Below are positions 3,001 through 47,025 of a stretch of DNA of 64,000 nucleotides, piece after piece. Position numbers and translations under genes: made by a program. The number at the start of each line of letters is the position of its first letter. Within the stretch, counting starts at the first letter, position 1. The notes beneath the pieces are model-generated. The model ran no database searches. It was not told the origin of the DNA and saw nothing but the letters and a program-made list of their open reading frames with translations. The stretch is from a virus: positions 50,409-114,408 of IMG/VR virus record IMGVR_UViG_3300012663_001306; one strand, given 5' to 3'.

Positions 3001-3180
3001 TTGGACTGTTACTTCCGCTCCAGGTTGCAATATAATTTGAGAAATTAATTGAATTCGTATCAACAACGTTAACATAAATTTGTGTTACACTACTAGTAAC
3101 AGCGTTATTGAATCTAATACTTCCTGGACTGCCGACTCCAGCTGTAAGTGTGTTATCAAAGTAGTAGCGTAACCCGCCAC
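1..3180 (-). repeat. Seven copies (last one truncated by the window edge) of a ~120-aa domain separated by short collagen linkers
   Basis: Each copy begins G[LI]xYxxD, then G.[IL]RFNN, [YF]INxxD, a conserved W, KGQLxI, YYTLxV and LAxExxxxGDxG. Approximate copies: 3180-2820, 2730-2365, 2250-1885, 1495-1140, 1060-700, 625-250, 170-<1. Confidence 0.75.
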
Positions 3181-23627: not shown

Positions 23628-24857
23628 TTATAGTCCGAATCTTGCTCGTAGAGCCGCATAGTTCTGTAGTTGTTCTGCTTCAGTCAATGCTCTGTTGTAC
23701 ATCAGCACCAAGGCAATTTGTCCTTGGAAGTGACGGTGAGCGTAGACGCTGGTACCAATGTACAATCCGTTTGGCATTGTCCAAGCGTTGTTGGTCCTAG
23801 ATCCGCCCATGATGTTCCATCCTGCTACTGGAAAATTACTTGCTTGGCCATTTATATAGTAAGTAGCCGCACTAGGGTAGGCCCAATCATTGCCGTCTCC
23901 AGGGTTGTTCACTGCCCAGCCACCGATGCCGTTGGTTCCAAATCTAACACTCTTATCTGCTTCTACACCAAACAATCCAACGAGGCCAGAGGCTGTGAAA
24001 TCAGGTTGAAACACTATAGTAAAGTCTGTATAGGTATTTTGTGCGGTGGTATGTATACTACTGCCTATATAACTATCTCCAGCATTTGTTTGCCAGCCAA
24101 TATAAGTGTTTGATCCAATTGTGCCTGTCACAATAGCACTAAAGTCATTTATAATAGTTCCATTGTTGGTAGCAGTTGATAGATCAGTGATGCCGGTCCC
24201 GTTAGTTGTGCCGCCTGAATAACAAACAGGATTGCTAAAATCGTAGTGTAATACCAATCCGTCTGTGACAATGGGCGGTGGTGGAGTATGACCTCTCAGT
24301 GTGACACCCCCACTAGGAACAAAAAATCCCGTGGTGCTATCTACATCACGATATAAATGCGGAGTAATATCATTCCAAGTAGATCCACTATCAGTGCTGT
24401 ATTCAATCAATAGGTCGGCACCTCCACCCTCATTGCCCCATTGTACTCTTAAGGGATAATCTGTGCCCGCAGTTAATGCGATAGGATTGCTGGTGTCGGG
24501 TGCTTGATAGTATGCCTTAATTAGATAATTTGGATTAACCGATTCATCGCCCGCAAATCCTTCTACAGCAAGTGAACCTAACCAAACTAAAAGATGGTCA
24601 TCAGGATTGCCTCGAATTAGGTAGGTGCCACTAGTAGGTGCTCGGAAGTAGCCTAGATACTGGGCACTACACGCTGAAACATCAAACAGACTATTAGAAT
24701 TCCATCCAGATACAACACTAGTGCTAGTTGCAGTATTTGCGGCGAACCAAGTGGCATCGTAATTAAAAATACCTGTGTAAAAAGTTTGTACAAGACCTGC
24801 TACTAGACTTGGTTGCCTAGTTCTGATAGTCTGTGCTGATCGTAGAGTTATTGACAT
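23628..24857 (-). CDS. PA14 plus LamG/concanavalin-like carbohydrate-binding virion protein (409 aa)
   Basis: PA14-like SAQYLGYFRAPTSGTY...DDHLLVWLG...YPLRVQWGN. LamG-like IVTDGLVLHYD...FQGQIALVLMYNRALTEAEQLQNY. Confidence 0.75.
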   Translation of the reverse strand: MSITLRSAQTIRTRQPSLVAGLVQTFYTGIFNYDATWFAANTATSTSVVSGWNSNSLFDVSACSAQYLGYFRAPTSGTYLIRGNPDDHLLVWLGSLAVEGFAGDESVNPNYLIKAYYQAPDTSNPIALTAGTDYPLRVQWGNEGGGADLLIEYSTDSGSTWNDITPHLYRDVDSTTGFFVPSGGVTLRGHTPPPPIVTDGLVLHYDFSNPVCYSGGTTNGTGITDLSTATNNGTIINDFSAIVTGTIGSNTYIGWQTNAGDSYIGSSIHTTAQNTYTDFTIVFQPDFTASGLVGLFGVEADKSVRFGTNGIGGWAVNNPGDGNDWAYPSAATYYINGQASNFPVAGWNIMGGSRTNNAWTMPNGLYIGTSVYAHRHFQGQIALVLMYNRALTEAEQLQNYAALRARFGL

Positions 24858-30800: not shown

Positions 30801-31205
30801 TTGATTATCTACATAAAGATAAGTGGTATATTCAGTTAAGGCACCGTCTACATATTCCTTTGTAATATAATTTCTACTATCGAGCGTAGAAGTAGAAACA
30901 AATCTATTGTTAACATAATCTAGACTAGCATAGTTTGATAGAGATATTGTACTGCTAGTAACAAATCCTAAAGGATTTTCATCTGAATAAGGTGTATATC
31001 CTAAAATTGTTGAGATATCAGTTGCTGTAAACGTTACAACTCCCGTTTGACTATTAAAACTAGTAACCCCGGCAGAGACAAATGCTGACTCTAATCTTTT
31101 GAAATTGTCATTTACTTTGGTAAACGCAGTCCTTAAACTGTCGCCGTTACCTGCATTTGCGCTAGTTCCTGTGTTGATGATGTTAATTATTGAAGGCGTA
31201 GTCAT
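24861..31205 (-). CDS. Large baseplate/tail-fibre protein (2,114 aa) with T4 gp9/gp10-like N-terminus and a central beta-propeller-like region
   Basis: INTGTSANAGNGDSLRTAFTKVNDNF matches the gp9/gp10 N-terminal motif. About 9 WxF..G.L.LP repeats. Propeller-like repeats DSQGNVYV, LLKYDTNGNLLW, SKFDTDGVLIW. Confidence 0.75.
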   Translation of the reverse strand: MTTPSIINIINTGTSANAGNGDSLRTAFTKVNDNFKRLESAFVSAGVTSFNSQTGVVTFTATDISTILGYTPYSDENPLGFVTSSTISLSNYASLDYVNNRFVSTSTLDSRNYITKEYVDGALTEYTTYLYVDNQGFLTPTTLPNFLTGYVTNTQAGITAQLLRDYTTATIYQSISQSNLIPDTAAFYNIGAEDYTWGNLYLGGATYFSGIGVNVDPITARLYVNGNDILAGWTITPTSFYANDLTVRLSATSRPNAQLGDVPSTAGIVLPSDGDSSFQPLTIINTGTVGVTLQGPGASIELRNRVRVIGEIDTPVTFKGTGIINPASGIGRHSLQITPNASFATPPGYPVPFLTQPQTILSTNTATHAPLLIKGRSIGLYASNSLDFDIGTSGESPGLLAVTPLGVIIGSHGGFGFGDYDELAEFGQNYVLPKTKGSTGQVMIQGSGNYLEWANSGAAYVDWENVYSNILPSSDLAYDLGSTSSQWRSLYVGTSTIYLGGTALSIAGNTLAINGEPIQTGGSNTANFAFTSSQVSVSNNSDITLVTNANTWTFGSNGNLTLPSQGKIGPTDVNSFLTFNYGDDVELKAGDNLYLSGSVATIRTSGAVIGQINATSVTVVSSGTNYLGNSTYGTDYPGTLVYVPSGPGPLVSGNFVVQSTEIFTVGDIITIPASIQNNTTATLQVTSTLPYSWSFANTGQLNLPQASNGTARIQSVADIDILSGNSLWTFDTNGVLTLPSGNTRIGDISGGGFQDFIIGSTGTLLGVVVHGQSGAGALQWVDNFENLGTTSTEVAAVIVNSPFASTTGTVQILTGISNGFGSSNTWEFGADGNLTIPDDIQDANGSVVRVATTSTAPTRVNGQLWFDNQEGRLYIKNDGVWLDASPTQIPSPETYLDGLAIDGTVIGTANVDGDAIVIDGGDNTKLTVSNNSVTIQVPGSGVIRPYWAAEFGGITTAVTTSSYTVGTGAFYDSQGNVYVLGGVQFDTNEMFGLDSLLLKYDTNGNLLWSRTWHDDSGANCGAVNQAFAIDSNDRIYWLATALDPTFGCWTGYMDTEGNLGLGGVAQASLGFIDGAFAGVDIACDNSGNYYLAGAFYDGNEIPAVIKVDGDSGVPIWTGSIVPEDFESLPSNGVYRAVTVNPATGDVWAIGDYNDGGLRAMLSKWDINGSHQWTKELVTVTGDVAAAVIYNGGYVYTIVNDDPDQKAVVSKFDTDGVLIWASFLAVGELDPIPNNFGDYNTGAYDLSFDATGNVYVTGTIPGPPAGQPQLWITKLNPTNGEMLYSRMLATNAGLLIFDNFSFGFGASGHRVGDIYQDTIVVTAVTESDIDDNTGTNAGRVMVAQLPIDGSVTGTFDNIDIIDITSDIDGICSTGTYTVTTLVWSTGTSTAITSTSSISVSTVTDVVGLTGETIALGSGTAGGTTTTNTWTFVNNNIILPPGGDILDSYGNSVLGDRYIALPNWITVVADTEHLPTLNTDYGWDSSGAWSTNATILGVEEPEGTSFPFRTTFSIPNDTKSVTTVDFVVNDLEESDFGITVFASGTTPTWVWEGSGSSIDAKYTPTELNGISGGAGGGEGWIPPSLGTYRARLTVDPTGTGTAAIELVTMDTSNNVLDTITYTETSFFNTSYKIGFASDNDGGVNKTYFKNLTININNGATVYTDTLMNGNSVGGSTTALGDRLTAGSNSVVLSSTGTLTLPNGGVISEVGGAFGGAIRLEPSGASSSTQALVIYPTAGVDGNHIHLTAGGGGTDLYLGDDDQYVKVDHSGTIVVGTLGANTSTWTFGTDGVLTLSTASVILGNSTDPNVYIETLTTSTTNTWTFAADGSTTLPIGVSIDEYNGSHFPRIVADTGKAFSLQGYGSTGSVALQWAETASTSSQIAQVGLNKFGDGLAKVVLTAGTSTNDMKVWEFAADGKLTLPGALVKSTVAKTGVILPTTTGIPNALGGSMTGLSLANGMYGPVTIGSVTFSVTVASGSITSFFDISSTSSYAVNATIGQLTSEDLGDSPGQTTNIGVDSVVQETPTAVDLTKSVNKLTNGDYTLADGVEGQIMYLVRQTGSTAHNVTVANVRLDGTVYTDVSFTPFTDGTDPTNMVTLIFTDSAWQSMGGVWNFT

Positions 31206-33974: not shown

Positions 33975-34003
33975 ATTATACAATATTTTGGATCAAGTGT
34001 CAA
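33975..34003 (-). promoter_or_regulatory. Consensus sigma70 (early-type) promoter for the ligase-hypothetical-infA unit
   Basis: Minus strand TTGACA (34003-33998)-17 nt-TATAAT (33980-33975), a perfect consensus. Confidence 0.85.
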
Positions 34004-34745
34004 GGCCGATTTTACCATTCTTCTTAAAGAATTTTTCTAAAATTATGCCCAAAACATCATATTTGTGGAACCGCGCATCACCGGGACGATCGTGGTGATT
34101 CTTATGCCATGCTTCGCCCCCAACAAATAAGTTAACCCAGACTCTATTACTTGGAATGTCTTTGGCCCAATCATGTGTCCATGTGTTAATAAATCCTTCA
34201 AAGTGAAATACTATAGCAATTGGTGCCCAAAATAATGCAAGTGCTAAATTAAAAGGCAATAGGAATAGTGAGCCTACAAGGATAGGAACATATATCCAAT
34301 AGTAGTACTTGTGCCATACTGCATGATGTGTCTTAAACAGGGTTGCAACAGATCTTGGATCAATTTTACTAAATCCATATCCAAAAATTTGTACATACCA
34401 TACACCCATAATTTTAGGGCTATGTGGGTCTTTATCGTTACCTTGGAATCTATGATGCTGTCTGTGTACTGCCGCCCAACTCAATGCACTTCCTTGCATA
34501 CTAAGGCCGGCAACAAACAATCCTATAAATTCTAACCAACGAGGTAGTTGTACTGCATTGTGACTAATTGACCTATGATAAGTCATGCTTATTCCGATTA
34601 TTGCAATTATATAATGCATTGCTAATGATAACAATAATAATTGCCATTGTAATGTTATTATTAGATATGCTAGAGCAATGTGTCCTAGTGCTACCCACAT
34701 ATAGCCGTATACTCTACCGGCTGTTAATTCTTGAAATTGTTTCAT
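33993..34745 (-). CDS. Membrane fatty-acid (Delta-9-like acyl-lipid) desaturase (250 aa)
   Basis: Three His boxes HRSISH, HRQHH, HKNHH; DPHSP motif; transmembrane segments. Confidence 0.9.
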   Translation of the reverse strand: MKQFQELTAGRVYGYMWVALGHIALAYLIITLQWQLLLLSLAMHYIIAIIGISMTYHRSISHNAVQLPRWLEFIGLFVAGLSMQGSALSWAAVHRQHHRFQGNDKDPHSPKIMGVWYVQIFGYGFSKIDPRSVATLFKTHHAVWHKYYYWIYVPILVGSLFLLPFNLALALFWAPIAIVFHFEGFINTWTHDWAKDIPSNRVWVNLFVGGEAWHKNHHDRPGDARFHKYDVLGIILEKFFKKNGKIGLDT

Positions 34746-35491
34746 TTTTTAATCAGTCGAATAATTAACGCAGGAATATCCCATTCCCACCACTTCTCCC
34801 AATTGCTCCATGCATAAGGTTTAGCATGGTGATTGTTGTGCCAGCCTTCGCCCAAAGTAATTAAATTTGCAATCCAACTATTACGACTTTCGTCATGTTT
34901 CAGATCGTAAGTTTTATAGCCATGTCGATGAGCTATAACAATAATAGAACTACTACTGTGCAAGCACAAAGATGCAGGTAGTGCATATACAAAAATAACA
35001 AACCAAGGATTAATTAATGCTAGGAGCAAACAATACATTACAATGATAGCAAGATAGTTTTTATGCAACCAGCGTTGGAATGCATTTCTTCTAAAATCTC
35101 GAATAAGTTTGACTTCTAATTTTGTAGTATTCCAAAAGCCAAACCATGCTTTTAAGTTTCCTAACAAATAAGGGCTATGCGGATCACCATCCCGTTCACA
35201 TGCTCGATGGTGTTGTCTATGAATTGTAACCCAGGCTAGCGGGCTTCCTACTGTTGTAATAACTCCAATTAAACTTAGTATTTTTTCTAATATTGTAGAT
35301 GTCTTAAAACTTCTATGACTTAGTAGTCTGTGATATCCTATGTTAATTCCAAGTACTCCAATAATCCAATATGTTATAAGAGATATTAACAATAGATAGT
35401 ACTGGCCAGTCATAAAAACCATAGCTATGCCCACTATAGATATAATATGATTCAAGATTTGGAGGCCGCGCACCGTTTGATTATGTGTCAT
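34742..35491 (-). CDS. Second membrane fatty-acid (Delta-9-like) desaturase (~249 aa)
   Basis: GYHRLLSHRSF, HRQHH, DPHSP, GEGWHNNHHA, WWEWD. Start re-assigned to ATG 35491 (TAAGTA box 5 nt upstream; avoids overlap with the divergent gene). ATGA overlap with the next desaturase. Confidence 0.9.
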   Translation of the reverse strand: MTHNQTVRGLQILNHIISIVGIAMVFMTGQYYLLLISLITYWIIGVLGINIGYHRLLSHRSFKTSTILEKILSLIGVITTVGSPLAWVTIHRQHHRACERDGDPHSPYLLGNLKAWFGFWNTTKLEVKLIRDFRRNAFQRWLHKNYLAIIVMYCLLLALINPWFVIFVYALPASLCLHSSSSIIVIAHRHGYKTYDLKHDESRNSWIANLITLGEGWHNNHHAKPYAWSNWEKWWEWDIPALIIRLIKK

Positions 35492-35536
35492 ATCCATACT
35501 TATCCGTATAGTAAATAGGTGTCCATAAATATTGGT

Positions 35537-36067
35537 ATGATCAACCAGAAAGAGTTTATTGAAAATTTTATCAAACATAAAGATACAGTTATCAACGAAT
35601 ACATTGCGTGTCCTAGAAAAAGTATTCCATTATACGGGTTTGATGGATCCGGTAAACCGTTAACAGAATGGCGTACTGTAACACTTTGGTGGGATAAAGA
35701 ACCTTGGCGTATTTTTCAAAAGTATTTTCCCTTCACTACTGACCTAGTTAGAACTGGTCCCACTCACCAAGGAACTGGGTGGCTTATTTTAGAGCCCAAC
35801 TCTCGCACACCCGAACATAATCATATAAGTTGGGGACATAAGATCATTGTTCATTTACCTACAGAAATTCCAGAAGGCGATACAGGATTTTGGGTAGAAG
35901 GCAAAGTTCATAGGTGGAAAATGGGGGAGTTATTTGCATTTGATGCAAATAAAGCTCATTACGGGTTTAATAATACAGGCAACCCGCGTTCTATTTTTGT
36001 AATGGAATTTGACTACAACGAATGGATTGATACCCTGCGCCCGTATATGCTATTAGACAGAGAATGA
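35537..36067 (+). CDS. Aspartyl/asparaginyl beta-hydroxylase-like Fe(II)/2OG oxygenase (~176 aa)
   Basis: [12 protein letters not shown]...VHLP...[19 protein letters not shown]...R fits the Asp_Arg_Hydrox pattern. Start at ATG 35537, 5 nt after TAAATA (35526-35531). Confidence 0.75.
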
Positions 36068-36382
36068 ACTACCGCATCCGCAGGTTGTTTCGGCATTAGG
36101 ATTTGTAATACTAAAATTACTACCCATTAAGTCTTCTTTGTAATCAATAATTGAGCCTTGCAGGTATTGAATACTCATACTATCTATTAAAAATCTTACA
36201 CTGTTTTTTTCAATCATAAAGTCATCTTCATTCTGGATTTCGTCAAATGTAAATCCGTATTGAAATCCACTGCATCCGCCGCCTTGAACAAATACACGTA
36301 GCATTAGCAACGGGTTTGCCTCATCAATAATTAAATCTTTAACTTTATCAGCACACTTATCTGTAATTTCAAGTTGTTGCAT
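36053..36382 (-). CDS. erpA: A-type Fe-S carrier, ErpA-like (109 aa)
   Basis: [20 protein letters not shown]...[16 protein letters not shown]. Confidence 0.9.
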
Positions 36383-36752
36383 GTTTTTTCCTATAATCTT
36401 CTACTGCGGCTTTGATTGCGTCTTCTGCTAAAATACTGCAATGTATTTTAACTGGAGGTAATGCTAGTTCTTCTGCGATTTGGGAATTTTTAAGGTTAAC
36501 AGCATCATTAATATGCATACCCTTAACCCACTCTGTAACCAACGACGAACTGGCGATTGCTGAACCACAGCCATATGTCTTGAAACGAGCATCTCTAATA
36601 ATACCATCTTCGTCTACCTTTATTTGTAATTTCATTACATCGCCACACGCAGGAGCGCCGACCATGCCGGTTCCAACTGTATCGTCAATTTCAAACTTAC
36701 CTACATTTCTTGGGTTTTCGTAATGATCAATAACTTTATCTGAATATGCCAT
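36369..36752 (-). CDS. iscU: Fe-S cluster scaffold IscU (127 aa)
   Basis: [53 protein letters not shown]. Confidence 0.95.
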
Positions 36753-36783
36753 TGGGGGTTCCTATGAGTAATTAGTGCCAACA

Positions 36784-36805
36784 TGCTATTTACACGTAAA
36801 TAGCA
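36784..36805. promoter_or_regulatory. Perfect 10-bp inverted repeat made of two back-to-back TAAATA boxes between divergent iscU and iscA
   Basis: TGCTATTTAC-AC-GTAAATAGCA. Confidence 0.7.
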
Positions 36806-36807
36806 GT

Positions 36808-37134
36808 ATGATAACTATTACCGAAACCGCTAGAAACAAAATACTTAAATTGCTGGCAAAAAGAGGAAAAGGAGTAGGAATCCGTCTGGGTGTAAAAACT
36901 ACAGGATGCAGTGGGCTGGCATATACTTTAGAATATGTAGATGAATACACTATAGAAAACGGTATTACTAATTATGCACAACAGGATTTTGTAGTTTTAG
37001 TAGATGCAAAGTCTGATGCTTACTTAAAAGGCATGACAGTTGATTGGGCAAGAAACGGTCTTAATGAAGGATTTGAATTTAAGAATCCCAATGAGAGAGA
37101 TAAGTGCGGGTGTGGAGAATCTTTTAGAGTTTAA
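36808..37134 (+). CDS. iscA: A-type Fe-S carrier IscA (108 aa)
   Basis: MITITE...RGKGVGIRLGVKTTGCSGLAYTLEYVD...GLNEGFEFKNPNERDKCGCGESFRV. ATG 36808 lies 5 nt after TAAATA. Confidence 0.92.
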   Translation: MITITETARNKILKLLAKRGKGVGIRLGVKTTGCSGLAYTLEYVDEYTIENGITNYAQQDFVVLVDAKSDAYLKGMTVDWARNGLNEGFEFKNPNERDKCGCGESFRV

Positions 37135-37601
37135 TCAAATTCTTCTAAAGAAAATGTAATACTTGCCCGTGGACTATCCGGTATAGCACAATGTAATAAT
37201 CCTGGAAGGATATATAACATTTGATTTTCTTGTAATACAAATTTAGAATCTTCAACTTGCCATAACGTATCGCCTATTATTTGCCATACCCATAAATGTT
37301 GTCCAGGATCTTTATGTAAATCAAATGTTTTACTAGTTGGTGTTGTTCCTGCATATAGTCCTGCTCTAGCATAATAATTTGGTAACAATGGTTGTAGAAA
37401 ATCCAGTACATCTTTACAATACGGATCTTGATCTAATCCACCTAACGTAAATCCACCTTCTCCAAAATTTCTATAATACAGTTTGTTTATGCTTGTTTGA
37501 TGTTTGACCAAAGAATGTATTTTATCCCATGTCCATTTGTTAGAATCTAACGTGTGGTCTACAACTCCCCAACGGACATTGAAAGATGTAGTATCAATCA
37601 T
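37131..37601 (-). CDS. JmjC/cupin-type Fe(II)/2OG oxygenase-like protein (156 aa)
   Basis: FDLHKD (HxD)...WQIIGDTLWQV...LYILPGLLHCA...RASITF. ATGA overlap with the upstream gene. Confidence 0.75.
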   Translation of the reverse strand: MIDTTSFNVRWGVVDHTLDSNKWTWDKIHSLVKHQTSINKLYYRNFGEGGFTLGGLDQDPYCKDVLDFLQPLLPNYYARAGLYAGTTPTSKTFDLHKDPGQHLWVWQIIGDTLWQVEDSKFVLQENQMLYILPGLLHCAIPDSPRASITFSLEEFD

Positions 37602-38350
37602 AACTCTTCTTCAACTCGATCCCAAAATAATATTCTAGCTTTAATAGCTTCAACAGCAGTCTGCTCTGCTTCTACTATTTTAGTAGGGCTGTAATCGCAC
37701 AGTTCGTTAATTAAGTTCAGTGCGGCCGGCCCATGTTCTTCTCCGTCAACTTCTATATGCCTATCTAAATAATATAAAAATCTGTTAGCGTTCAATGAAT
37801 TAATATCAAGCTGATTTACGAGTCTTCTAAACATTTGCGGAATAACAGTTTCTCGGCCGTAAGTAAAGGCGGCGGCAATTTCATGTGCTTTGCCGCGTCT
37901 AATGATAGTAAAGGTAGAATTCATAAATTCTTTGCTAGGTGCAGGAATATATATGTTATCTAATGCCCAATCTAATCCGTTAGTTTCTACTGAGCTTAGG
38001 AAATTGGTTATAGGTGCAACATTTGCTCCAATTTCTAACATAGCCTGGCAGTAAAGATCAAAATGGGATAAGTGATTACCGTTAAACGGATCAACATCAC
38101 TTTCTTCTGCTAAAATAATTTCGTTGATCAACCTACTGGATGTACGCTGTATCCTAGTAGGAATCCAAAGGTCACCGCTTGGGCATATTCTATGTTGTAG
38201 TGCTTTAGCAAGACTCATAAAATCCCATACAGCATACACATGATGTTCCATGAATATCCGTAGATCTTCAATTGATTGAATTGTGTTGGTTACCAGTAAA
38301 GAATGATTCTCTAACAGTACCCTATGTTGTTCAATTATTGACTGGCGCAT
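37598..38350 (-). CDS. DUF3050-like protein (heme-oxygenase-like helical fold, probable diiron enzyme), 250 aa
   Basis: FMEHHVYAVWDFMSL, RLINEIILAEESD, SHFDLY, AAFTYGRETVIP, YYLDRHIEVDGEEHGP. Confidence 0.8.
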   Translation of the reverse strand: MRQSIIEQHRVLLENHSLLVTNTIQSIEDLRIFMEHHVYAVWDFMSLAKALQHRICPSGDLWIPTRIQRTSSRLINEIILAEESDVDPFNGNHLSHFDLYCQAMLEIGANVAPITNFLSSVETNGLDWALDNIYIPAPSKEFMNSTFTIIRRGKAHEIAAAFTYGRETVIPQMFRRLVNQLDINSLNANRFLYYLDRHIEVDGEEHGPAALNLINELCDYSPTKIVEAEQTAVEAIKARILFWDRVEEEL

Positions 38351-39659
38351 TTATAGATTCTATCCCCATTTCTAGCAACTCTACTTCTTGTCCAAATAAT
38401 AATTCAAAGGCTTTGTGCTGTATGGCGCCGTTCCATACTTTTTCTACTCTACAGTTTTGTAGGAACACGTTATCTGGGAATGTTATAGGACAACTAGACT
38501 TGCACAGTCTACGTACACTACAATCAGAACAATGAGTTTTCTTTCTGTTAAGATCTAATTGTATAATGCGGATGCCTTTTAAGTTATCAATTTTACCTGC
38601 AATAAATTTTTCGCTTGTATGCGGACACAGTCTTACATTTCCTTGGACATCAACTGATAGCACATCTTCGGCATCTGCTCCACACCCTGTTGTCATTGTT
38701 ACAGGTACTTGATGTTTAAGTGTGGCAGCATAGTCAAGAACTCCGCCCTTGCCATCAAATATATTTGTTTCTAAGAACTCTCGATTTTTATTTCTTCCGT
38801 GAGTCTTTAGTTGTTTAATGCACTCGTCAATATAGCTATTCATTGTATGTTTGAAGTTTGCTAGGTCTTCTCCAGATATAACATGATCAGCACTATTTTG
38901 TGAATTAGTCTCGTCATAAATTCTAGCCATTGTATAACTTAATTTGACATTTTTAAGATTGAGTTTTTCTGCAACATCTCTAAAATATTTGTTAATGCCA
39001 AACATATCATAGTTGGTTAAACTTATAACAGTATTAAAGCTAAACTGTACATGAGGATACATGGTGTCTAATCGTTGCAATGTTTTAGCCACACTAGACT
39101 TATCAAATATGTCTTCGCCACGTAAAGATTCTTGTCCAGGACCGTCGTGGCTTATTCCCATAGTAATTTTTGATTCTAGCGTCTCAAAAAAGTCAGCATG
39201 TTTATCTCTTAGTGGACTACCATTAGTAGATATATAGAAATGACGTCCTGCTTTATCTAAGTGTTTCATAACTGGCATTATGTCATTCCAATATAGGAAC
39301 GGTTCTCCGCCCCAAAGCTCTATGCGTTCTAAGTTTTCAAGGTCAAGATAAGTATCGATTGATTTAATAAATGCATCCAGATTGGTGTTCTTTTTTTGCT
39401 CTTCTGGATTACCAATGTCTTTCTGCATACAGTAAGAGCAACTATAGTTACAGGCCTGCCCAAACAAAATACGAATAGCTGTTGGCTTATTACTTTTCTT
39501 TCTAGAGCCATGCACTTTGCTAGCTTCTTCATAGAAAGAAATATCTTTCTCCGGAGGAAGCGTTAATGGTTCGCCTAGTTCGTTGTATATGGCATTATTA
39601 TTAATTTCATAATAGATAATGCTGTTTGATTGTTTTAATCTAAATTTGGAATAGCTCAT
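38331..39659 (-). CDS. Radical SAM protein with SPASM-type C-terminus (442 aa)
   Basis: CNYSCSYC, WGGEP, STNG, SHDG; C-terminal CGAD...DVQGNVRLCPH...CSDCSVRRLCKSSCP...C. Confidence 0.92.
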   Translation of the reverse strand: MSYSKFRLKQSNSIIYYEINNNAIYNELGEPLTLPPEKDISFYEEASKVHGSRKKSNKPTAIRILFGQACNYSCSYCMQKDIGNPEEQKKNTNLDAFIKSIDTYLDLENLERIELWGGEPFLYWNDIMPVMKHLDKAGRHFYISTNGSPLRDKHADFFETLESKITMGISHDGPGQESLRGEDIFDKSSVAKTLQRLDTMYPHVQFSFNTVISLTNYDMFGINKYFRDVAEKLNLKNVKLSYTMARIYDETNSQNSADHVISGEDLANFKHTMNSYIDECIKQLKTHGRNKNREFLETNIFDGKGGVLDYAATLKHQVPVTMTTGCGADAEDVLSVDVQGNVRLCPHTSEKFIAGKIDNLKGIRIIQLDLNRKKTHCSDCSVRRLCKSSCPITFPDNVFLQNCRVEKVWNGAIQHKAFELLFGQEVELLEMGIESINAPVNN

Positions 39660-40714
39660 ATTTTACTTATTATTGGTATAACCTGGTCTGTTTTTAACAT
39701 TCCAAATTTTGTCATTGTCCACCCTAGCTCTTGAAGTTTATAAAAAAATCTCGACTTGTTAGTATACATGTAGTATGGTATAAAAGTAAAGTTTTTATTA
39801 ACGGTGTATTCTAAGGTTGTTTTGTAGTATTCTCTAAACTTTGGATTGATAACTCTATTTTTCCAACTATCGTAATGGTATTGTTTGCTCGTAAGCATAT
39901 CAGTCATAAAGCTAGAATGATCAAACCCGTTAGTAATTAAATGAAACGGATCAATAGTTAAATTACTAGCATCGTCGCTTGAAAAATAAAATCTATCGTT
40001 ATATAGATGTATAGACTCCCTATAAATTTGCATCAATCCGCTATTGTCGTTTACAACCCACGTATTTTGATATTCGGCATAGTCTTGTTCTAATATTTCT
40101 CTGTTGTTTGTTCTAAAATCGTGATGCACACAATTATGTAATCTATGCTTTTTAGTAAATTCAATTAACTCTTTGAAGATAGTAGGATTACCGCAGTCTA
40201 TATATTTGATTTTTTGTATTCCGTACTTATCGTATAGTTTACCTAATGTATCAAGTACTTTATCAACACCCACTTGTTCTAAAAATTCTGTGCTTATAGA
40301 GATATCGCCCAGGGTTTTTATCTTAATATCTAAGTCAAGTATTCGGAAGATTGCGTTATCAGTAATACATACTTCAAACAGGTGTCCGTGGGTTTGATAC
40401 CATTTGTAGTGGTTAGGAAAATTATATTTTAGATAATACAAGTCATCATTTGTCCTAACAGATCCAAAGTAATCAAATATTTCAAACCACGTAGATTGCA
40501 AACTAAAATCATCTGTAAAAATTTCATTTACTAAATCTTTAGTTTTAGCCAAATTGTCTTTTATGTAACATACTTTACAACCTGCGCCACAATAGTATCT
40601 TTTACCTAAACTAAAATACAAGTCGTGATCAAGAGAACGAAGGCAATCTTCCTTAATCCAATAGTCAGCTAAACTATCGTAGCCGTCAAAATTATCTCTG
40701 TTTGTATTTTGCAT
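39656..40714 (-). CDS. Atypical radical SAM-like protein (~352 aa)
   Basis: CGAGCKVCY (CxxxCxxC) near the N-terminus, but no GGEP motif and no SPASM cysteines. Start likely ATG 40714, 6 nt after TAAATA (40721-40726). Confidence 0.65.
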   Translation of the reverse strand: MQNTNRDNFDGYDSLADYWIKEDCLRSLDHDLYFSLGKRYYCGAGCKVCYIKDNLAKTKDLVNEIFTDDFSLQSTWFEIFDYFGSVRTNDDLYYLKYNFPNHYKWYQTHGHLFEVCITDNAIFRILDLDIKIKTLGDISISTEFLEQVGVDKVLDTLGKLYDKYGIQKIKYIDCGNPTIFKELIEFTKKHRLHNCVHHDFRTNNREILEQDYAEYQNTWVVNDNSGLMQIYRESIHLYNDRFYFSSDDASNLTIDPFHLITNGFDHSSFMTDMLTSKQYHYDSWKNRVINPKFREYYKTTLEYTVNKNFTFIPYYMYTNKSRFFYKLQELGWTMTKFGMLKTDQVIPIISKI

Positions 40715-40729
40715 AATCAATATTTACAA

Positions 40730-41848
40730 TTAAGAAATAATCTTAAAGTCTTCTTGGATTCCTACCCATTCTAAGATATTTTGTTTTTGATTTAGCTTTG
40801 ATACATGCATTATAACAAAGTCCATATATGTATAAAACTCCTTGCATTTTGTACCTGGCTGTTCGTTGAACATATGATACAAATACTTTAATCCGCAACT
40901 AGGACGCTTTTTACAGTTCATACAACTATCGTATATTCTTCCAGCATCGCCTTGATTTTTCCAAATTTGCTTGTTTCGCCAATCACCTATACGAGCATCA
41001 ACAGTTTTGTATTCTAGAAAATCGAACTCGGGATAAATGAATCCATCTGGTGAGAGTATTAATTTGTTATGCTCTGAAAAGTATGCTTTATCAACCATAG
41101 TATAACATCCGTCAATATATACAGATATCTTTTTAACATAGAGTATCTGAATAAATTGCAAAAAGGCATCTAAAAATTGTACTAAATCTAACTTATCAAT
41201 TATAACGTCAAACTTATCTTTACCTCTTCGATGCCTTAACGGAATAATATTAATAGATCGGCATCTAGTTTTATAACAGGTACTAACAATATCTTTTATG
41301 TTGTCTAATGAAAAAGAGTTTGGTTGATCAATGGGTAACACGCATTGCCATTGCCACTTAATTTTATTTCTATTAAGTACTGTTGACATTTCTACAACAT
41401 CAAACGATTTTCTATTAGTAGCTTGATGCATAAAATCGTAACTGACTGTTACATATAATACATCTGCGTATTGATCAAAGAAGTCTTCAGTCTCTTTAAC
41501 TAATGAGCCGTTTGTAGTTACAGTCAATTGCCAGTTGTTCTTTTTTAAGATAGGATATAACCATAACATTATTTCCTTCATTCGAGTTATAAAGAGCAAA
41601 GGCTCGCCGCCGTGAAATGATACACGTTCTACTTCATTTGGTTGAAGGGCAACCCATTCTATAAACTCTTTGATATCTTGAGAAGTATCTCGAGTTAAGT
41701 TTTGCCCTCCTAGATTTGTAATATAGTCTCTATCGCAATATGTACAATCAAAATTACATGTGTTACCTAAGTAGATAACAACCATCTTTATTTTATCTAG
41801 TGGTTGAATGGGTATGAGATTTATTTTTTGATTCAATAAGTCGTTCAC
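40730..41848 (-). CDS. Radical SAM protein with reduced SPASM/Twitch-like tail (372 aa)
   Basis: CNFDCTYC, FHGGEPL, TTNG; C-terminal CMNCKKRPSCG...C. Confidence 0.9.
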   Translation of the reverse strand: MNDLLNQKINLIPIQPLDKIKMVVIYLGNTCNFDCTYCDRDYITNLGGQNLTRDTSQDIKEFIEWVALQPNEVERVSFHGGEPLLFITRMKEIMLWLYPILKKNNWQLTVTTNGSLVKETEDFFDQYADVLYVTVSYDFMHQATNRKSFDVVEMSTVLNRNKIKWQWQCVLPIDQPNSFSLDNIKDIVSTCYKTRCRSINIIPLRHRRGKDKFDVIIDKLDLVQFLDAFLQFIQILYVKKISVYIDGCYTMVDKAYFSEHNKLILSPDGFIYPEFDFLEYKTVDARIGDWRNKQIWKNQGDAGRIYDSCMNCKKRPSCGLKYLYHMFNEQPGTKCKEFYTYMDFVIMHVSKLNQKQNILEWVGIQEDFKIIS

Positions 41849-43553
41849 TAAATGTACCTTGATAAGTTTTATGCATGGATTGTAAAAATATCATATGCAG
41901 TAGGCAAAGATAGAATGCACGTTGATACAAGTTTTCAGCTTTTATCTTATTATCAATTGGAGCAAGATTTCCTTTTTTAACAACATAATAGTAAAAGTCA
42001 TCAACTTCTTCTGTATCGCTAGTAATCAGAGCTTTGAGTTCTTCTACAAAATTATCCTTGCTGAAGTTAGGAGTAATCTCATCATTGATAATCTTTTTCC
42101 ATACGGCAAGCAATGTTCTATAATCTGCAATCTCGTCCATATTAACATGAACTTTATCTATTAGCGGATGGAAATTAAATGTGTAGTAGAACATCAAATA
42201 TACCAAACCTTTAACATAGGGATGATTCTCTTCGCTAGATTCTACTGCGCTACAAATGCTTTCGTATTTTTTCTTAAATTGTTTTTTAGCAATATCTTCC
42301 TGCAAGTCTAGATATAGCTTCACAATCTTTTGGCACATGTCGTCTGGGCGAAACATTCTAGATCCGGTATCTAAGTTTCCAGCAGGGCATTGATAACATG
42401 CGTTCTTCAAATCACATGTTTTGCATTGTTCCTCTTCTTCAAACATTTTAGAATATTCTACTTGGAAGTACTTGTACCTGTCTATATAAAGATTATCTTG
42501 GAATAGATTACCTAGTATAGTTTCCGAAGTTGCGCCAGCCTTTTGGTTAGTAAAGAAGTAGCATCCGCTCCAGTCTCCGCTTGCATCGATGGCAATCATG
42601 TCAGATCCTATCATGCAGTTTTCTTCACCTTTCTGTCCAACACCTTCTGAAAAATGTATTTGGAAATCTGCATATTTGTCTAACACTGCTAAAATATCTC
42701 TATGTAGGTTATTCCATTCGCTATCGGACCAGCGGATGAAGCCTTTGCTAGAGTCCAGGATCAGCGGATGTACTACCATCCTTCTAATGCCCCTAGTATA
42801 CAAATGATCAACGAACTCTGTAAAATACGGAGCATTTTCTCTTGCTAGAGTGCATCTAATAATAATACGCTTTTGTTGCTTAGGACCATCGGGCATATAA
42901 CTAATGAAGTCCATAATTTTATTAATCTTGTCTTGCCCAATTTCTCTATGATCAACTTCGCTTCTATCTGTATCAAGCGATAATAAGATATACGTGAAAT
43001 CATAGTTTAGAAATTCGTCTAATAATTCTTTAGTAAACAATAACCCGTTAGTAACCATACCAACAACAGTGTTAACATCACCACGGCTATTTTCTTCTAG
43101 CTCTTTTTCATTTTTTCTTACAAAGTCTAAGATAATATCTTTATGAATTAACGGCTCTCCGCCAAAGAAATTAAAGACTTTCTTTTGTCTTTGATTTGCG
43201 TTAACTAAGAATCTATATGCTTGAAGTAAACTTTCGTTAGTAAATCTTCCAAAATCTTTATTATGCTGTTCGTAGCAGTATGAGCAGGATAGATTGCAAG
43301 CGTTGGTTAAAATTAAATTTAGTTGCTTAAGGTCTTGGAACAAATAGTTAGCTGATGAAATAGATACAACTGTTTCATCTACTTTAGGTACTACTGAAAT
43401 TAGTTTATTTGCTTTTTCTAATCCTTTGGGTGTAATAATATTCTTAGTTTCAAATCGTAGCGAACCGTCTTCAGATGTAGTCACCGAAGCCTTATGATCT
43501 TCCAATCTTTTCTTTTGAGTTTCGTTCTTAATCCAAATTACACTATTGGTCAT
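41793..43553 (-). CDS. Radical SAM/SPASM protein, putative peptide/protein maturase (586 aa)
   Basis: CNLSCSYC, FFGGEPL, VTNG, LSLD; SPASM CMIGSD...DASGDWSGCYFF...CKTCDLKNACYQCPAG...C; extra helical C-terminal domain. ATGA overlap with the Cys-rich small gene. Confidence 0.92.
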   Translation of the reverse strand: MTNSVIWIKNETQKKRLEDHKASVTTSEDGSLRFETKNIITPKGLEKANKLISVVPKVDETVVSISSANYLFQDLKQLNLILTNACNLSCSYCYEQHNKDFGRFTNESLLQAYRFLVNANQRQKKVFNFFGGEPLIHKDIILDFVRKNEKELEENSRGDVNTVVGMVTNGLLFTKELLDEFLNYDFTYILLSLDTDRSEVDHREIGQDKINKIMDFISYMPDGPKQQKRIIIRCTLARENAPYFTEFVDHLYTRGIRRMVVHPLILDSSKGFIRWSDSEWNNLHRDILAVLDKYADFQIHFSEGVGQKGEENCMIGSDMIAIDASGDWSGCYFFTNQKAGATSETILGNLFQDNLYIDRYKYFQVEYSKMFEEEEQCKTCDLKNACYQCPAGNLDTGSRMFRPDDMCQKIVKLYLDLQEDIAKKQFKKKYESICSAVESSEENHPYVKGLVYLMFYYTFNFHPLIDKVHVNMDEIADYRTLLAVWKKIINDEITPNFSKDNFVEELKALITSDTEEVDDFYYYVVKKGNLAPIDNKIKAENLYQRAFYLCLLHMIFLQSMHKTYQGTFSERLIESKNKSHTHSTTR

Positions 43554-43765
43554 ACAGTTCCACGGTTACAGTTACATTGACATTGACAGTCACATACTGT
43601 GGTATAATCATCATAAAATATATGATTATGCGTGGCAAGGTTGTTCAAAATTGTTAACATAGTTTGATAATTTTGTTGACCAATGATGGTTGTATTTGCA
43701 ACAGCATCAGCCGGTGGTTGGACACCATCGGCCCAGTCGTTTACGTTTTCAGTATTTTCTGCCAT
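43550..43765 (-). CDS. Small Cys-rich protein (71 aa), candidate radical-SAM substrate or precursor
   Basis: Ends in TVCDCQCQCNCNRGTV. AAGGAG SD upstream. Stop overlaps the start of the rSAM/SPASM gene. Contains an HxH module. Confidence 0.75.
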   Translation of the reverse strand: MAENTENVNDWADGVQPPADAVANTTIIGQQNYQTMLTILNNLATHNHIFYDDYTTVCDCQCQCNCNRGTV

Positions 43766-43776
43766 ATATTTGCTCC

Positions 43777-44703
43777 TTAAATTTTATGTACTACATATTC
43801 TCTGTAGAATCTATTGGTCTTATTTAATGCTACATCCATTGCTGTAGCAGTGTTCCATCTTAGATATAGATAACCAACAGAATTATCAACTGTTATTTCA
43901 AACTGATTGTTATTTCTAGTAACTGGAAAGTTTGTAGTACATTTGACTTTGGCGTTGTCAAATAAATCAGTATCAGATAAATGCAGTCTTATAAACCAAT
44001 TATCAAAGTTTGAAACTGTAAACTTGTCTCCAGTTACTAACAATTGATTTCCTACTATTTTTACATTTTTAGAAAATCTAGGCTGAAATAATGTTTCGTT
44101 AAGATTATTACCATGATTGTCTATAGAATGTACAAAGGTGTTATCGTCTATTCGTCCACTTAGATTTGCAGATTCTTGTATGGCATAATGATTTAATACA
44201 ATGTAATAGATGTCTGCATCATTAGTTTTATAAACTAAAAACCAGGGAATGACATCAAAATTTTCAGATATAGTTTCATTGTTTCGATGATCTAACATTA
44301 ATCCGTTATCTAGTCTACTAAAATATCGAGTACCTTCTATAGCACTTTTTTGATCTGTTGCGTCAGCTAACGGAGCTCCAAATAATAAAATCTTACACTG
44401 AGGACGCCTGTCCTTAATTTTTTCGTATTCATCTACTATATCTTGTAAATTGATAGATATAGATGGTAACAGATCGGCTGTGGTATAAGGCCTAGTTAAA
44501 CATATATCAGATTCAACTCCTGCCGACAGCACAAATCTAGTATCTACGTTTCTAAAAAAAGATATTCTTGCAGTTCGGTATGCATCGGTATTCAGACTAG
44601 AAAAGTACCCTAGGCCTGGTTCTGGATTTAGATTATATGTGCTCTCCGCGTCATCCCACATACTTGAAAATCCTTGCCCGGTTTGGAAAAAAAATGCTCT
44701 CAA
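43777..44703 (-). CDS. Hypothetical protein (308 aa, TTG start) within the rSAM operon
   Basis: Long ORF tightly packed between neighbours; AAGGA upstream of the TTG; no family recognised. Confidence 0.7.
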   Translation of the reverse strand: MRAFFFQTGQGFSSMWDDAESTYNLNPEPGLGYFSSLNTDAYRTARISFFRNVDTRFVLSAGVESDICLTRPYTTADLLPSISINLQDIVDEYEKIKDRRPQCKILLFGAPLADATDQKSAIEGTRYFSRLDNGLMLDHRNNETISENFDVIPWFLVYKTNDADIYYIVLNHYAIQESANLSGRIDDNTFVHSIDNHGNNLNETLFQPRFSKNVKIVGNQLLVTGDKFTVSNFDNWFIRLHLSDTDLFDNAKVKCTTNFPVTRNNNQFEITVDNSVGYLYLRWNTATAMDVALNKTNRFYREYVVHKI

Positions 44704-44712
44704 TTTGTTTCC

Positions 44713-45168
44713 TTACGCCGATGTTCGATCAACGATACCGTGTCTATGATATCTTAGAGTTTTAATCCTAGTGTTCATTGCATTGTAGTCGCTTGCTCTA
44801 ATAACTCCAGCTTGCTTAAAATCACCACCGGTCGCTGGGCCTGCGCCGGTGAGTGTATCGCCGGTTTGAACTCCGTATGCGTAACCTGTATTTCTGCCAC
44901 CAGGAGTATAGTAATTATTTCGGTCTCCTGCACTTGGGTTATCACCGTACCCTGCACCATATGTAGCTAATTGATATGCATCGGTATATTGGTGGTAGTG
45001 CCCAGCCATTGAAGTAATTAGACCTTTTATAGCATTTATATCTGAATAATAAATTACTTTACCGGCACCTACGTTCCCCTGTAAGGTAGGAATTTGAGAT
45101 TGGTATGCAAGATTTCCTAAAGGATGAATTATGCTATACGCGGCACGGGGTACTTGTCCTGTTGGCAT
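44713..45168 (-). CDS. Gly/Tyr-rich protein with two internal coiled-coil+HxH modules (151 aa)
   Basis: VIYYSDINAIKGLITSMAGHYHQYTD and VIRASDYNAMNTRIKTLRYHRHGIVD. GGAG SD upstream. Confidence 0.75.
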   Translation of the reverse strand: MPTGQVPRAAYSIIHPLGNLAYQSQIPTLQGNVGAGKVIYYSDINAIKGLITSMAGHYHQYTDAYQLATYGAGYGDNPSAGDRNNYYTPGGRNTGYAYGVQTGDTLTGAGPATGGDFKQAGVIRASDYNAMNTRIKTLRYHRHGIVDRTSA

Positions 45169-45169
45169 T

Positions 45170-45619
45170 TTAGTTCTCCACTATAAGTGTTTCAGTATAT
45201 ACTGTACTGGTACTAATTGACGGTGATAATACATAAACTACCTCTCCGTCAACATCAAAATTGTCAAATAATAAATTTACAACATTTTCATCGTAAAATG
45301 ATTGTATTTCAGCTACATCAGTAGACTGAAGTATGTGTCCAAAATTAGTTAATAAGGAATCTTTTACTGATTGATCAATTGCGGTGTCTGCTAGAAAATC
45401 TGGAAAGATAATTTTGAGATCTGGGGATATAATTCTAATATTACTAGGAACATCGTCATTGCCCGTGAATCCTAAATGTTCTACTAAATCTTTTATTTCG
45501 TCTGTAATAACTTTAACAATTCGTTGACCTTCTACCGGAGTATCAGTAATGTTAACCAACGGAAATTCTTTACGCTTCATAGCGTATTCTAAAAAAATTA
45601 ATCTTGGATCTATACTCAT
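45170..45619 (-). CDS. Acidic hypothetical protein (~149 aa), probable first gene of the rSAM operon
   Basis: Likely start MSIDPRL at ATG 45619, with AAAGGTG and TAAATA (45641-45646) upstream. Confidence 0.65.
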   Translation of the reverse strand: MSIDPRLIFLEYAMKRKEFPLVNITDTPVEGQRIVKVITDEIKDLVEHLGFTGNDDVPSNIRIISPDLKIIFPDFLADTAIDQSVKDSLLTNFGHILQSTDVAEIQSFYDENVVNLLFDNFDVDGEVVYVLSPSISTSTVYTETLIVEN

Positions 45620-45669
45620 AGTAATTAGCACCTTTAATCATATTTAGCATGACTAAAGCTAAGGACAAA

Positions 45670-46940: not shown

Positions 46941-46969
46941 ATTATAGCATCTAGCTTGAATTGTGTCAA
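46941..46969 (-). promoter_or_regulatory. Consensus sigma70 promoter for the hydrolase and membrane-protein genes
   Basis: Minus strand TTGACA (46969-46964)-17 nt-TATAAT (46946-46941) with extended -10 TG. Confidence 0.85.
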
Positions 46970-46997
46970 GTTTCAGGGCCAAACGCCCAGTTTTTGG

Positions 46998-47025
46998 TAG
47001 ACATTTAGGTAAAATGTGTTATAAT
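46998..47025 (+). promoter_or_regulatory. Divergent sigma70-type promoter for the small ORF and glycosyltransferase unit
   Basis: TAGACA-16 nt-TATAAT with TGn extension. Confidence 0.6.

Follow-up and report, generated by a model that had tools for sequence, protein, structure and literature searches.

SPASM-type enzymes of the radical S-adenosylmethionine (rSAM) class have become known as maturases of bacterial peptide antibiotics and cofactors. Among the described systems, the pairs CteB-CteA (PDB accession no. 5WGG) and PapB-PapA (freyrasin, NF047865) come closest to the locus reported here, as in both the gene of a small Cys-rich protein, whose Cys residues stand among Asp/Asn-type residues, adjoins that of an rSAM enzyme whose SPASM domain is complete. 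The same arrangement was found in a 64,000-nucleotide stretch of viral DNA (positions 50,409 to 114,408 of IMG/VR record IMGVR_UViG_3300012663_001306; hereafter the window), where a conserved cassette of eight genes encodes a 71-aa protein with an alternating Cys tail (pep71), its neighbours HxH151 and p308, four rSAM-type enzymes (rSAM586, rSAM372, p354 and rSAM442) and a DUF3050 protein. The families of PapB and CteB are the best sequence matches of rSAM586, which is a member of neither, as its scores lie far below their cut-offs (PapB, NF047865: 125.8 bits over profile positions 2-321 of 330, cut-off 340; SCIFF maturases, TIGR03974: 79.3 bits, cut-off 425). Furthermore, the CteB and PapB systems possess a CX3D or SCIFF motif and a single rSAM enzyme, whereas here a Cys-X repeat is accompanied by four rSAM-type enzymes. 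Unlike these systems, the present one is phage-encoded, is tied to tail fibre genes and includes a predicted docking partner, no protease or exporter was found with it, and its product probably stays a protein.

Further likenesses concern either the chemistry or the fold. It has been described that NxxcB links Cys to Asn through a beta-thioether within an NxxC motif, and that Ala, Gln or Asp can take the place of Asn as acceptor (PMC9389541). This set matches the X residues of the Cys-X ladder, a likeness of residue set and motif; NxxC peptides carry a single motif and belong to a quorum-regulated streptococcal operon, whereas here a ladder of two to six or more Cys lies at the C-terminus of a phage protein. 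QhpD and QhpC resemble the system proposed below in that an rSAM/SPASM enzyme introduces several Cys-to-Asp/Glu thioethers into a protein of approximately 80 aa, which is left uncleaved and works as a partner-bound subunit, but the dehydrogenase, Trp-quinone and periplasmic context of that system are lacking here. The HxH motifs recall the gp37 needle and gp12 of phage T4 and gpV of phage P2, in which a helix or strand followed by HxH is repeated thrice round an axis, and a fibre context is common to both; the T4 and P2 sites are homotrimeric, whereas here three HxH motifs come from two chains (2+1) or one fused chain, and the likeness is one of motif and predicted model, not of detected homology. 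The HXS antiphage system (HxsA/B/C/D) employs two rSAM enzymes for the maturation of a protein with short His-containing repeats and is active in phage-host conflict (PMC13128918); it differs in being bacterial and defensive, with an HxS repeat and a periplasmic effector, and the HxsB and HxsC models score far below their cut-offs on the proteins of the window. A full-text literature search turned up neither a description of fibres with Cys-Asn tails nor one of rSAM action on structural proteins of phages, in keeping with the statement of a first-pass annotation of this DNA, made from the letters alone, that no characterised phage system is known to have this architecture. Maturation of Cys-rich substrates by SPASM rSAM enzymes is of a known kind; its proposed occurrence in phages, with fibre-type proteins, a docking partner and four enzymes, would be new.

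The presumed substrate of the cassette enzymes is pep71. Its N-terminus is followed by an amphipathic helix, the pair H46-x-H48, the stretch FYDDYTTV, a (Cys-X)4-Cys ladder and NRGTV, the tail reading CDCQCQCNC-NRGTV. Thirty-three close homologues were identified, and a profile search of 1.8 billion representatives extended the family to at least 74 clusters, nearly all of 45-135 aa, that share the pattern helix-HxH-x3-D-x-Y-(C-X)n-x-RG with two to six Cys. The N-terminal 25 residues are variable and the Cys core is highly conserved; H46, H48, D52, D53, Y54, C58, C60, C62, C66, R68 and G69 are invariant. Of the 336 X positions of (Cys-X)n, 321 (95%) hold N, Q, D, A or E, the spacing from HxH to the first Cys is 12 residues in 91 of 95 proteins, and x-RG follows the last Cys in 74 of the 95. 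No other in-frame CxCxCxC tail is encoded in the 114-kb contig, the two remaining CxCxCxC-coding sites being out of frame. The stop codon of pep71 overlaps with the start codon of rSAM586 (ATGA, 43553-43550), and this overlap, already reported in the first-pass annotation, was read directly in the DNA.

Searches with rSAM586 retrieved 19 IMG/VR loci at 45-75% identity, as well as Ralstonia jumbo phages RP12 and RP31 at 41% identity. The gene order HxH151, p308, pep71, rSAM586, rSAM372, p354, rSAM442, DUF3050 was found in 19/19 of the IMG/VR loci, each scored only as far as the fetched DNA reaches; p308 is present in all 19, and the DUF3050 gene, with which the conserved part of the cassette ends, in 12 with enough downstream DNA. 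RP12 and RP31 and one contig of a metagenome-assembled genome (MAG) carry the same eight genes in this order. In RP12, ORF074 corresponds to HxH151 (which also occurs in the IMG/VR loci), ORF075 to p308 (by structure) and ORF080 to the DUF3050 protein, while the small gene is unannotated (L001:6889-7086; L numbers denote the loci compared) and sits before the p308 counterpart. In the RP12/RP31 paper, the rSAM enzymes of the cassette are named in an enzyme list only and are given no further treatment. The MAG contig (L024, NCGL01000045.1, 25.6 kb, labelled Bdellovibrio sp.) was the sole match among 185,579 species genomes; it holds the whole cassette, with the DUF3050 gene on the opposite strand, and is probably a phage contig binned into a Bdellovibrio-labelled MAG. 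It had been said that the proposal would fall if homologous rSAM clusters usually lacked a Cys-tailed ORF; all 19 loci, RP12 and the MAG contig keep one. The first-pass annotation had delimited an operon of ten genes. All ten ORFs are indeed present on the minus strand (45631 to 37131), each abutting or overlapping the next, but the two outermost are not part of the conserved unit: no homologue of cupin156 was found in L001 or L005-L023, and a homologue of g153, a protein with no family match in Pfam, PHROG or NCBIfam, only in L012 and L023, at 22% identity. The conserved unit is therefore of eight genes rather than ten.

The link between tail and enzyme extends well beyond this cassette. Achromobacter phage JWF and Ralstonia phage RSP15 encode distant homologues of rSAM442 within modules annotated as tail fibre modules, where the T4 gp36-like fibre protein gp028 of JWF holds NCNCDCNCNCSC and the side tail fibre of RSP15 ends in NCQCGN. 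This pairing was examined in both directions. In the forward direction, IMG/VR was scanned for DNA encoding NCNCNCNC, which yielded 71 ORFs of at least 60 aa with (NC)4 within 20 residues of the stop. An rSAM homologue was present in the fetched flank of 57 of these 71 Cys-Asn-tailed ORFs, on the same strand in all 57 and downstream in 54, at 25-5330 nt; twelve of the 14 tailed ORFs without an rSAM have less than 2.7 kb of downstream DNA. Among short or non-terminal matches to the motif, an rSAM was found in 1/52. In the reverse direction, 80 loci were chosen by rSAM profile alone, of which 61 have 3 kb or more of DNA upstream. With the strict pattern, an upstream ORF on the same strand and with a (C-[NQDE])n end was identified in 41/61, and with a looser one in 51/61, including two more Hint-fused cases, whereas among other ORFs a Cys-X tail occurs in 1/3974. 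The pairing of rSAM enzymes with (CX)n-ended ORFs, for which the first-pass annotation had suggested a synteny search, thus holds in both directions and in unrelated phages. The window shows it as well, with a Cys-(N/Q/D) tail upstream of, and co-oriented with, an enzyme of the rSAM442 clade.

Seven of ten sampled Cys-tailed proteins match tail fibre PHROGs (down to E 2.5e-70), and the fibre proteins with such a tail are of 300-600 aa. In the simple layout the tailed fibre is followed by at least one ORF of 190-320 aa and then by an rSAM enzyme of 450-490 aa. In hhalign comparisons, p308 was unrelated to the ORFs after Cys-Asn-tailed fibres, to JWF gp029 and to RSP15 ORF046/047, so that its equivalence to the ORFs of the simple systems is positional only. 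Pfam searches of these accessory ORFs gave nothing beyond one weak 2-oxoglutarate-dependent (2OG) oxygenase match, in a 192-aa ORF that follows one group of tailed fibres (L028:4612-5187, minus strand, and homologues; PF13759, 2OG-Fe(II) oxygenase, E 1e-4). Oxygenases recur beside Cys-Asn tails, as the cupin does in the window. In JWF gp028 (L025:2679-4130), L196 and L200, a Hint (intein-like) domain stands directly after the ladder (NCNCNCSC / FPAG...); if this domain cleaves itself off, the protein would then end with the ladder, possibly as a thioester.

Three of the four enzymes score above the Pfam cut-off for radical SAM domains (PF04055, 29.5 bits), namely rSAM586 (68.5 bits), rSAM372 (46.9 bits) and rSAM442 (43.7 bits), and the CX3CX2C motif is invariant in the alignments of all three. 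A SPASM domain with the full seven Cys is present in rSAM586 (PF13186, 21.6 bits against a cut-off of 21.5) and in rSAM442 (TIGR04085, 28.9 against 27), which bears out the rSAM/SPASM assignment of the 586- and 442-aa proteins in the first-pass annotation. The invariant Cys of rSAM586 are 86/90/93 and 313/331/377/380/386/389/407, flanked by a conserved N-terminal region of 74 aa and a helical C-terminal extension. Its best PDB match is CteB (5WGG, E 9e-19, residues 75-389), and the QhpD family (TIGR03906) is also among its matches, at 65.5 bits against a cut-off of 453. Conserved Cys of rSAM372 are C31/C35/C38 and C191/C309/C312/C318/C335, the C-terminal cluster of approximately five suggesting a twitch-like or partial SPASM domain. 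The protein p354 has no Pfam, NCBIfam or PDB sequence match (profile against PDB: nothing below E 0.07), although its CX3CX2C motif (C44, C48, C51) is invariant in ten homologues, which is compatible with its earlier description as an atypical rSAM enzyme; it matches phrog_36229, and the ESM Atlas offers, as no more than a lead, viral Radical_SAM clusters (0.94) as its look-alikes. In a tree of 70 sequences with long branches, built by a quick maximum-likelihood search, each of the four enzymes forms a clade of its own, that of rSAM372 being separate and specific to the cassette. The rSAM442 clade is the only cassette clade that joins the fibre-associated rSAMs, 34 of which form its sister group (SH-like approximate likelihood-ratio test, 98); its member in the window is 27-28% identical to the rSAM enzymes of phages JWF and RSP15. 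The earlier view that the small gene is coupled to the first rSAM gene is therefore correct as regards the overlap with rSAM586, while by phylogeny the counterpart of the enzyme of Cys-Asn tails is rSAM442. The DUF3050 protein matches PF11251 over its full length (278.7 bits against a cut-off of 22.2, E 5e-83) with conserved His, Glu and Asp, and is probably a heme-oxygenase-like di-iron oxidase of the MgoB/PvfA type.

The protein HxH151 is a candidate partner of pep71. It contains two helix-HxH modules (H57/H59 and H141/H143), both HxH pairs being invariant in the alignment. For the predicted complex of HxH151 and pep71 the interaction score ipSAE is 0.69 against 0.25 for the best control, the mark used being one that 58 of 80 solved complexes and 2 of 110 mismatched pairs reach; three runs share at least 83% of contacts, and the predicted local distance difference test (pLDDT) of the partner is at least 68. 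The predicted interface is formed by residues 28-52 of pep71 and residues 43-61 and 123-147 of HxH151 and spans all three HxH motifs, with the Cys tail of pep71 outside it. By this model, then, the helix-HxH module of pep71 is predicted to dock on its 151-aa neighbour. Natural fusions lend this independent support: within a single chain, proteins P0060, P0090 and P0102 each contain three stretches that match the pep71 profile, and P0043 and P0099 two. The C-terminal end of P0060 is a clear pep71 tail (E 7e-14), while its N-terminal module matches HxH151 weakly (E 0.0017), and for this reason the fusion argument rests on the three pep71-profile matches and not on homology to HxH151. Given the predicted complex and the fusions, the part of pep71 that would pass for a leader looks like one third of a three-module unit. 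The description of pep71 as a small precursor-type substrate with a leader hence needs amendment, as the 'leader' appears to be a module for docking onto HxH151 rather than a disposable segment. The three-module unit resembles, by analogy, the HxH metal sites of trimeric fibres.

The remaining non-enzymatic protein of the cassette, p308, consists of an N-terminal alpha/beta part and a C-terminal immunoglobulin (Ig)-like beta-sandwich (residues 200-308) in an AlphaFold2 model of good quality scores (pLDDT 81, predicted template modelling score 0.82). Its C-terminal domain gave generic Ig-like matches (VIA-align, Z 6-7), and Foldseek against PDB found only weak Ig/cadherin-like matches (TM approximately 0.2), whereas RP12 ORF075 is a structural homologue (Foldseek TM 0.73-0.76, E 2.7e-17). 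No Pfam, PHROG or NCBIfam family and no usable ESM Atlas match was found for p308, which may be a scaffold, a chaperone or a structural partner.

We consider it fairly probable that a widespread phage system is represented in the window by its stand-alone form, a system in which SPASM rSAM enzymes cross-link the Cys-X tail of a host-attachment part, without cleavage or export. In the common form of such a system, the enzymes would act on alternating Cys-(Asn/Gln/Asp) tails at the distal C-terminal ends of tail fibres. Here, the tail would be carried by pep71, whose helix-HxH module would dock onto the two modules of HxH151 and so create a unit of three helices and three HxH motifs, which would mimic with one and a half chains the His6 metal sites of trimeric fibres. 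The Cys-X ladder, left free, would be modified by up to four radical-SAM-type enzymes, of which rSAM442 would be the counterpart of the fibre-tail enzyme and rSAM586 the CteB/PapB-like one translationally coupled to pep71, with rSAM372 and p354 as cassette-specific additions; the DUF3050 oxidase and the Ig-domain protein p308 would complete the conserved set. As for substrates, the best-supported reading is that the ladder is acted on by rSAM442 and probably by the other three enzymes. The most likely chemistry, by analogy, is the formation of non-alpha thioethers between Cys sulphur and side-chain carbons of N, Q, D or E, as in ranthipeptides and the NxxC type, because the nearest characterised enzymes make Cys-S-to-C links and the acceptor set of NxxcB is that of X; as (N-C)n is a chain of them, the ladder can also be read as overlapping NxxC motifs. 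The FYDDY stretch may be a further target. The outcome would be a rigid element, cross-linked and bound to HxH151, that remains a protein and that we infer to be part of the host-attachment apparatus. The first-pass annotation had leant towards a modified component of the virion rather than a secreted bacteriocin, and this choice is favoured by the fibre-type tails, the position of the cassette after fibre genes in relatives and the failure to find a peptidase or exporter. We put forward with more reserve, at what we judge to be slightly less than an even chance, the fuller proposition that phages mature their own host-attachment apparatus with rSAM enzymes, placing a ladder of thioether or other radical-made cross-links at fibre tips, and that the eight-gene cassette of large phages builds a two-chain, three-HxH metalloprotein with one such ladder by means of four rSAM enzymes and a di-iron oxidase.

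Other explanations differ from this proposal in what becomes of the Cys-X ladder or of pep71 as a whole. The ladder and the HxH motifs might chelate a metal or an Fe-S cluster as a needle without covalent change, the rSAM enzymes acting on another substrate, for example lipid. CxC motifs are typical of metallothioneins and the HxH modules of T4 gp37 bind Fe; to this may be added that alternate residues of a strand face one side, that Fe-S assembly genes adjoin the cassette and that genes for ketoacyl synthase and desaturases lie inside or near it. The coupling of tail and rSAM is nevertheless found in both directions in unrelated phages, often with just these genes and one further ORF, the X residues are limited to N, Q, D, A and E, which are known thioether acceptors and not typical residues of metal sites, and the nearest characterised relatives of the enzymes are peptide cross-linkers, all of which makes a purely metal-binding needle unlikely. 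A redox cofactor or protein-bound quinone derived from the peptide, in the manner of pyrroloquinoline quinone, mycofactocin or cysteine tryptophylquinone, would have FYDDY and Cys cross-linked by the rSAM enzymes and oxidised by the DUF3050 protein. The Tyr, Asp and Cys just before and in the ladder are invariant, the QhpD family is among the matches noted above, and the combination of several rSAM/SPASM enzymes with a heme-oxygenase-like oxidase recalls PqqE with PqqC and QhpD with QhpG. We regard such a cofactor as very improbable, as the cassette lacks a protease and a dehydrogenase partner, all family scores are far below their cut-offs, and the simple fibre systems consist of a tail and one rSAM enzyme, with neither FYDDY nor DUF3050.

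A classical ribosomally synthesised and post-translationally modified peptide (RiPP) would require that the leader of pep71 be cut off and the cross-linked core freed at lysis as a bacteriocin, a signal or an anti-competitor peptide. The small size and Cys content of pep71, its translational coupling to a SPASM rSAM enzyme, the variability of its N-terminal 25 residues and the best family matches, which are maturases of ranthipeptides and SCIFF peptides, would all suit this explanation. We give it very little credence, however: no peptidase or exporter was found in the window or in the relatives examined, the helix-HxH 'leader' is a predicted docking module that is shared with the partner and fused to it in other phages, the same tail forms the C-terminus of fibre proteins of 300-600 aa, and the core is highly conserved rather than diversified. 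Matured pep71, alone or with HxH151 and p308, might instead be an intracellular effector directed against host defence, or serve in superinfection exclusion or host takeover, and be no part of the virion. For this speak the absence of the cassette proteins from the virion mass spectrometry of RP31, the neighbours of the cassette in the window, which are hydrolase and metabolic genes and not fibre genes, and the bacterial precedent of HXS, a protein effector matured by rSAM enzymes in phage-host conflict (PMC13128918). It appears quite improbable in view of the fibre context, which recurs in relatives and in the simple systems, and of the HxH module, a hallmark of fibre and spike proteins.

Several points weigh against the proposal that the cassette modifies a host-attachment part. 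Every functional link is genomic or model-based. The gel-band mass spectrometry of RP31 virions lists none of ORF68-76 (PMC5468394 Table S3); this proteome is shallow, and small or cross-linked proteins are easily missed in it. All matches to NCBIfam maturases are far below the family cut-offs, and an RRE (RiPP recognition element) domain is not shown in rSAM586, the AlphaFold2 model of which has a mean pLDDT of 58, and below 50 over residues 1-103. In 10/61 rSAM loci (L174, L198, L199, L204, L205, L207, L213, L215, L223 and L226) no Cys tail is present upstream; these enzymes may have other substrates, or the tails may have been missed by the pattern. Lipid genes inserted between HxH151 and p308 hint at other substrates too: L009 carries a FabF-like ketoacyl synthase and a fatty-acid desaturase there (L009:3230-5252) and L012 a ketoacyl synthase (L012:3904-5130), and these inserts also include three ORFs without assigned function. 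In the window, the genes directly upstream of the cassette encode a cell-wall hydrolase and small proteins and are not fibre genes. Moreover, a single Cys tail per pseudo-trimer cannot form the inter-chain staples that are possible in true trimeric fibres, and the need for four enzymes and an oxidase here, against one enzyme for fibres, is unexplained.

Whereas rSAM/SPASM maturases are otherwise known from the peptide antibiotics and cofactors mentioned above, the two-way genomic association ties them here to the distal, host-recognising ends of fibres. Were the fuller proposition true, a virion protein would for the first time be seen to undergo radical cross-linking by enzymes, and SPASM enzymes would gain a new class of substrates that are proteins and not peptides. 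Real cross-links would represent an unrecognised layer in fibre assembly, stability and host range, would explain recurrent phage genes annotated as 'hypothetical' or 'radical SAM', including those of the cultured phages RP12, RP31, JWF and RSP15, and would provide a large new family of substrates, built on a very simple repeat, for enzymological study. The cassette of the jumbo phages further offers a predicted HxH complex of two proteins that lends itself to testing, together with three additional rSAM paralogues.

The window forms the 3' part (64 kb) of an IMG/VR viral contig of 114 kb, for which CheckV estimated a completeness of 32%; the phage is therefore large. Near-identical DNA originates mainly from lake and freshwater metagenomes, with some from seawater; the sequencing runs listed as carrying it are of DNA only, with no RNA run, and megablast of the region against phage records gave no match. 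The features of the window are listed in Table 1.

Table 1. Coordinates of the cassette genes and of other features of the window.
Feature	Position	Strand	Description
g153	45170-45631	-	GTG start, 153 aa; 149 aa from ATG at 45619; acidic
HxH151	44713-45168	-	151 aa; two helix-HxH modules, without Cys tail
p308	43777-44703	-	308 aa, TTG start
pep71	43550-43765	-	71 aa, C-terminal end CDCQCQCNCNRGTV; AAGGAG ribosome site
rSAM586	41793-43553	-	586 aa, radical SAM/SPASM
rSAM372	40730-41848	-	372 aa, radical SAM
p354	39656-40720	-	354 aa, or 352 aa from ATG; divergent radical-SAM-like
rSAM442	38331-39659	-	442 aa, radical SAM/SPASM
DUF3050 protein	37598-38350	-	PF11251 match
cupin156	37131-37601	-	156-aa small cupin
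IscA/ErpA-type	36775-37134	+	Fe-S_biosyn, E 7.8e-17
IscU	36369-36752	-	NifU_N, E 3.6e-53
IscA/ErpA-type	36053-36382	-	Fe-S_biosyn, E 1.6e-17
Asp/Asn beta-hydroxylase family protein	35519-36067	+	PF05118, E 4.5e-15
Two fatty-acid desaturases	33993-35578	-	in tandem
Giant ORF	2-15538	-	at least 5179 aa, open at window start
PA14/GLEYA protein	23628-24857	-	409 aa; carbohydrate-binding domains, E 3.6e-16
Giant ORF	24861-31205	-	2114 aa
Giant ORF	52003-60345	-	2780 aa
Divergent sigma-70-type promoters	46941-47025	both	between hydrolase operon and plus-strand genes

In relatives, matches to fibre PHROGs (YomR in RP12) were obtained for the genes that adjoin the cassette on its upstream side. The window has a gene for a virion structural protein (phrog_5838, E 2e-248) 3 kb beyond the upstream hydrolase region, and tblastn of a 1131-aa neighbour against phage records gave no match. 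Peptidase and transporter families were found neither in the ten genes nor in their neighbours or the inserts of related loci, and in this the first-pass annotation, which had seen no exporter or peptidase, was right. It had also called the last gene of the run JmjC/cupin; a small cupin it is, but the JmjC match stays below the cut-off (PF08007, JmjC_2, 19.2 against 22 bits) and covers only the last 33 residues. The adjoining IscU and two IscA-type genes fit a high demand for Fe-S and probably supply clusters to the four rSAM enzymes. A protein of the Asp/Asn beta-hydroxylase family is encoded between these genes and two tandem fatty-acid desaturases. LpxO-type lipid hydroxylases are members of the same family, and the protein could hydroxylate Asn/Asp of the ladder or act on lipid in an LpxO-like manner.

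The promoter argument of the first-pass annotation, by which a TAAATA box marks the run as using a promoter of structural genes, fails because this hexamer is not specific to such genes. The box upstream of g153 is real (45646), and TAAATA is found 4-50 nt upstream of many starts, among them those of g153, the internal cassette gene p354 (40726), the Isc genes, an HNH endonuclease and giant ORFs; as it precedes genes of all kinds, it was ruled out as a mark of structural or late genes. There are 43 TAAATA sites in the window (e.g., 60357, 23622, 40726, 45901 and 36792/36797), many of them 4-25 nt before an ATG, as in GTAAATATAAGTTATG. Should these boxes act as promoters, many transcripts would have almost no leader. 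The space between the divergent iscU and iscA genes holds two of them back to back (36792/36797). Upstream of the hydrolase gene, at 46969-46941, there is a perfect sigma-70 consensus; it belongs to a pair of divergent sigma-70-type promoters, the minus-strand one with 12/12 consensus positions and an extended TG and the plus-strand one with 11/12. No minus-strand terminator-like site was found within the cassette.

Three giant ORFs, all on the minus strand, are probably virion or fibre proteins; the 2114-aa and 2780-aa ones match no Pfam family. The 409-aa protein with PA14/GLEYA domains is likely an adhesin-type virion protein.

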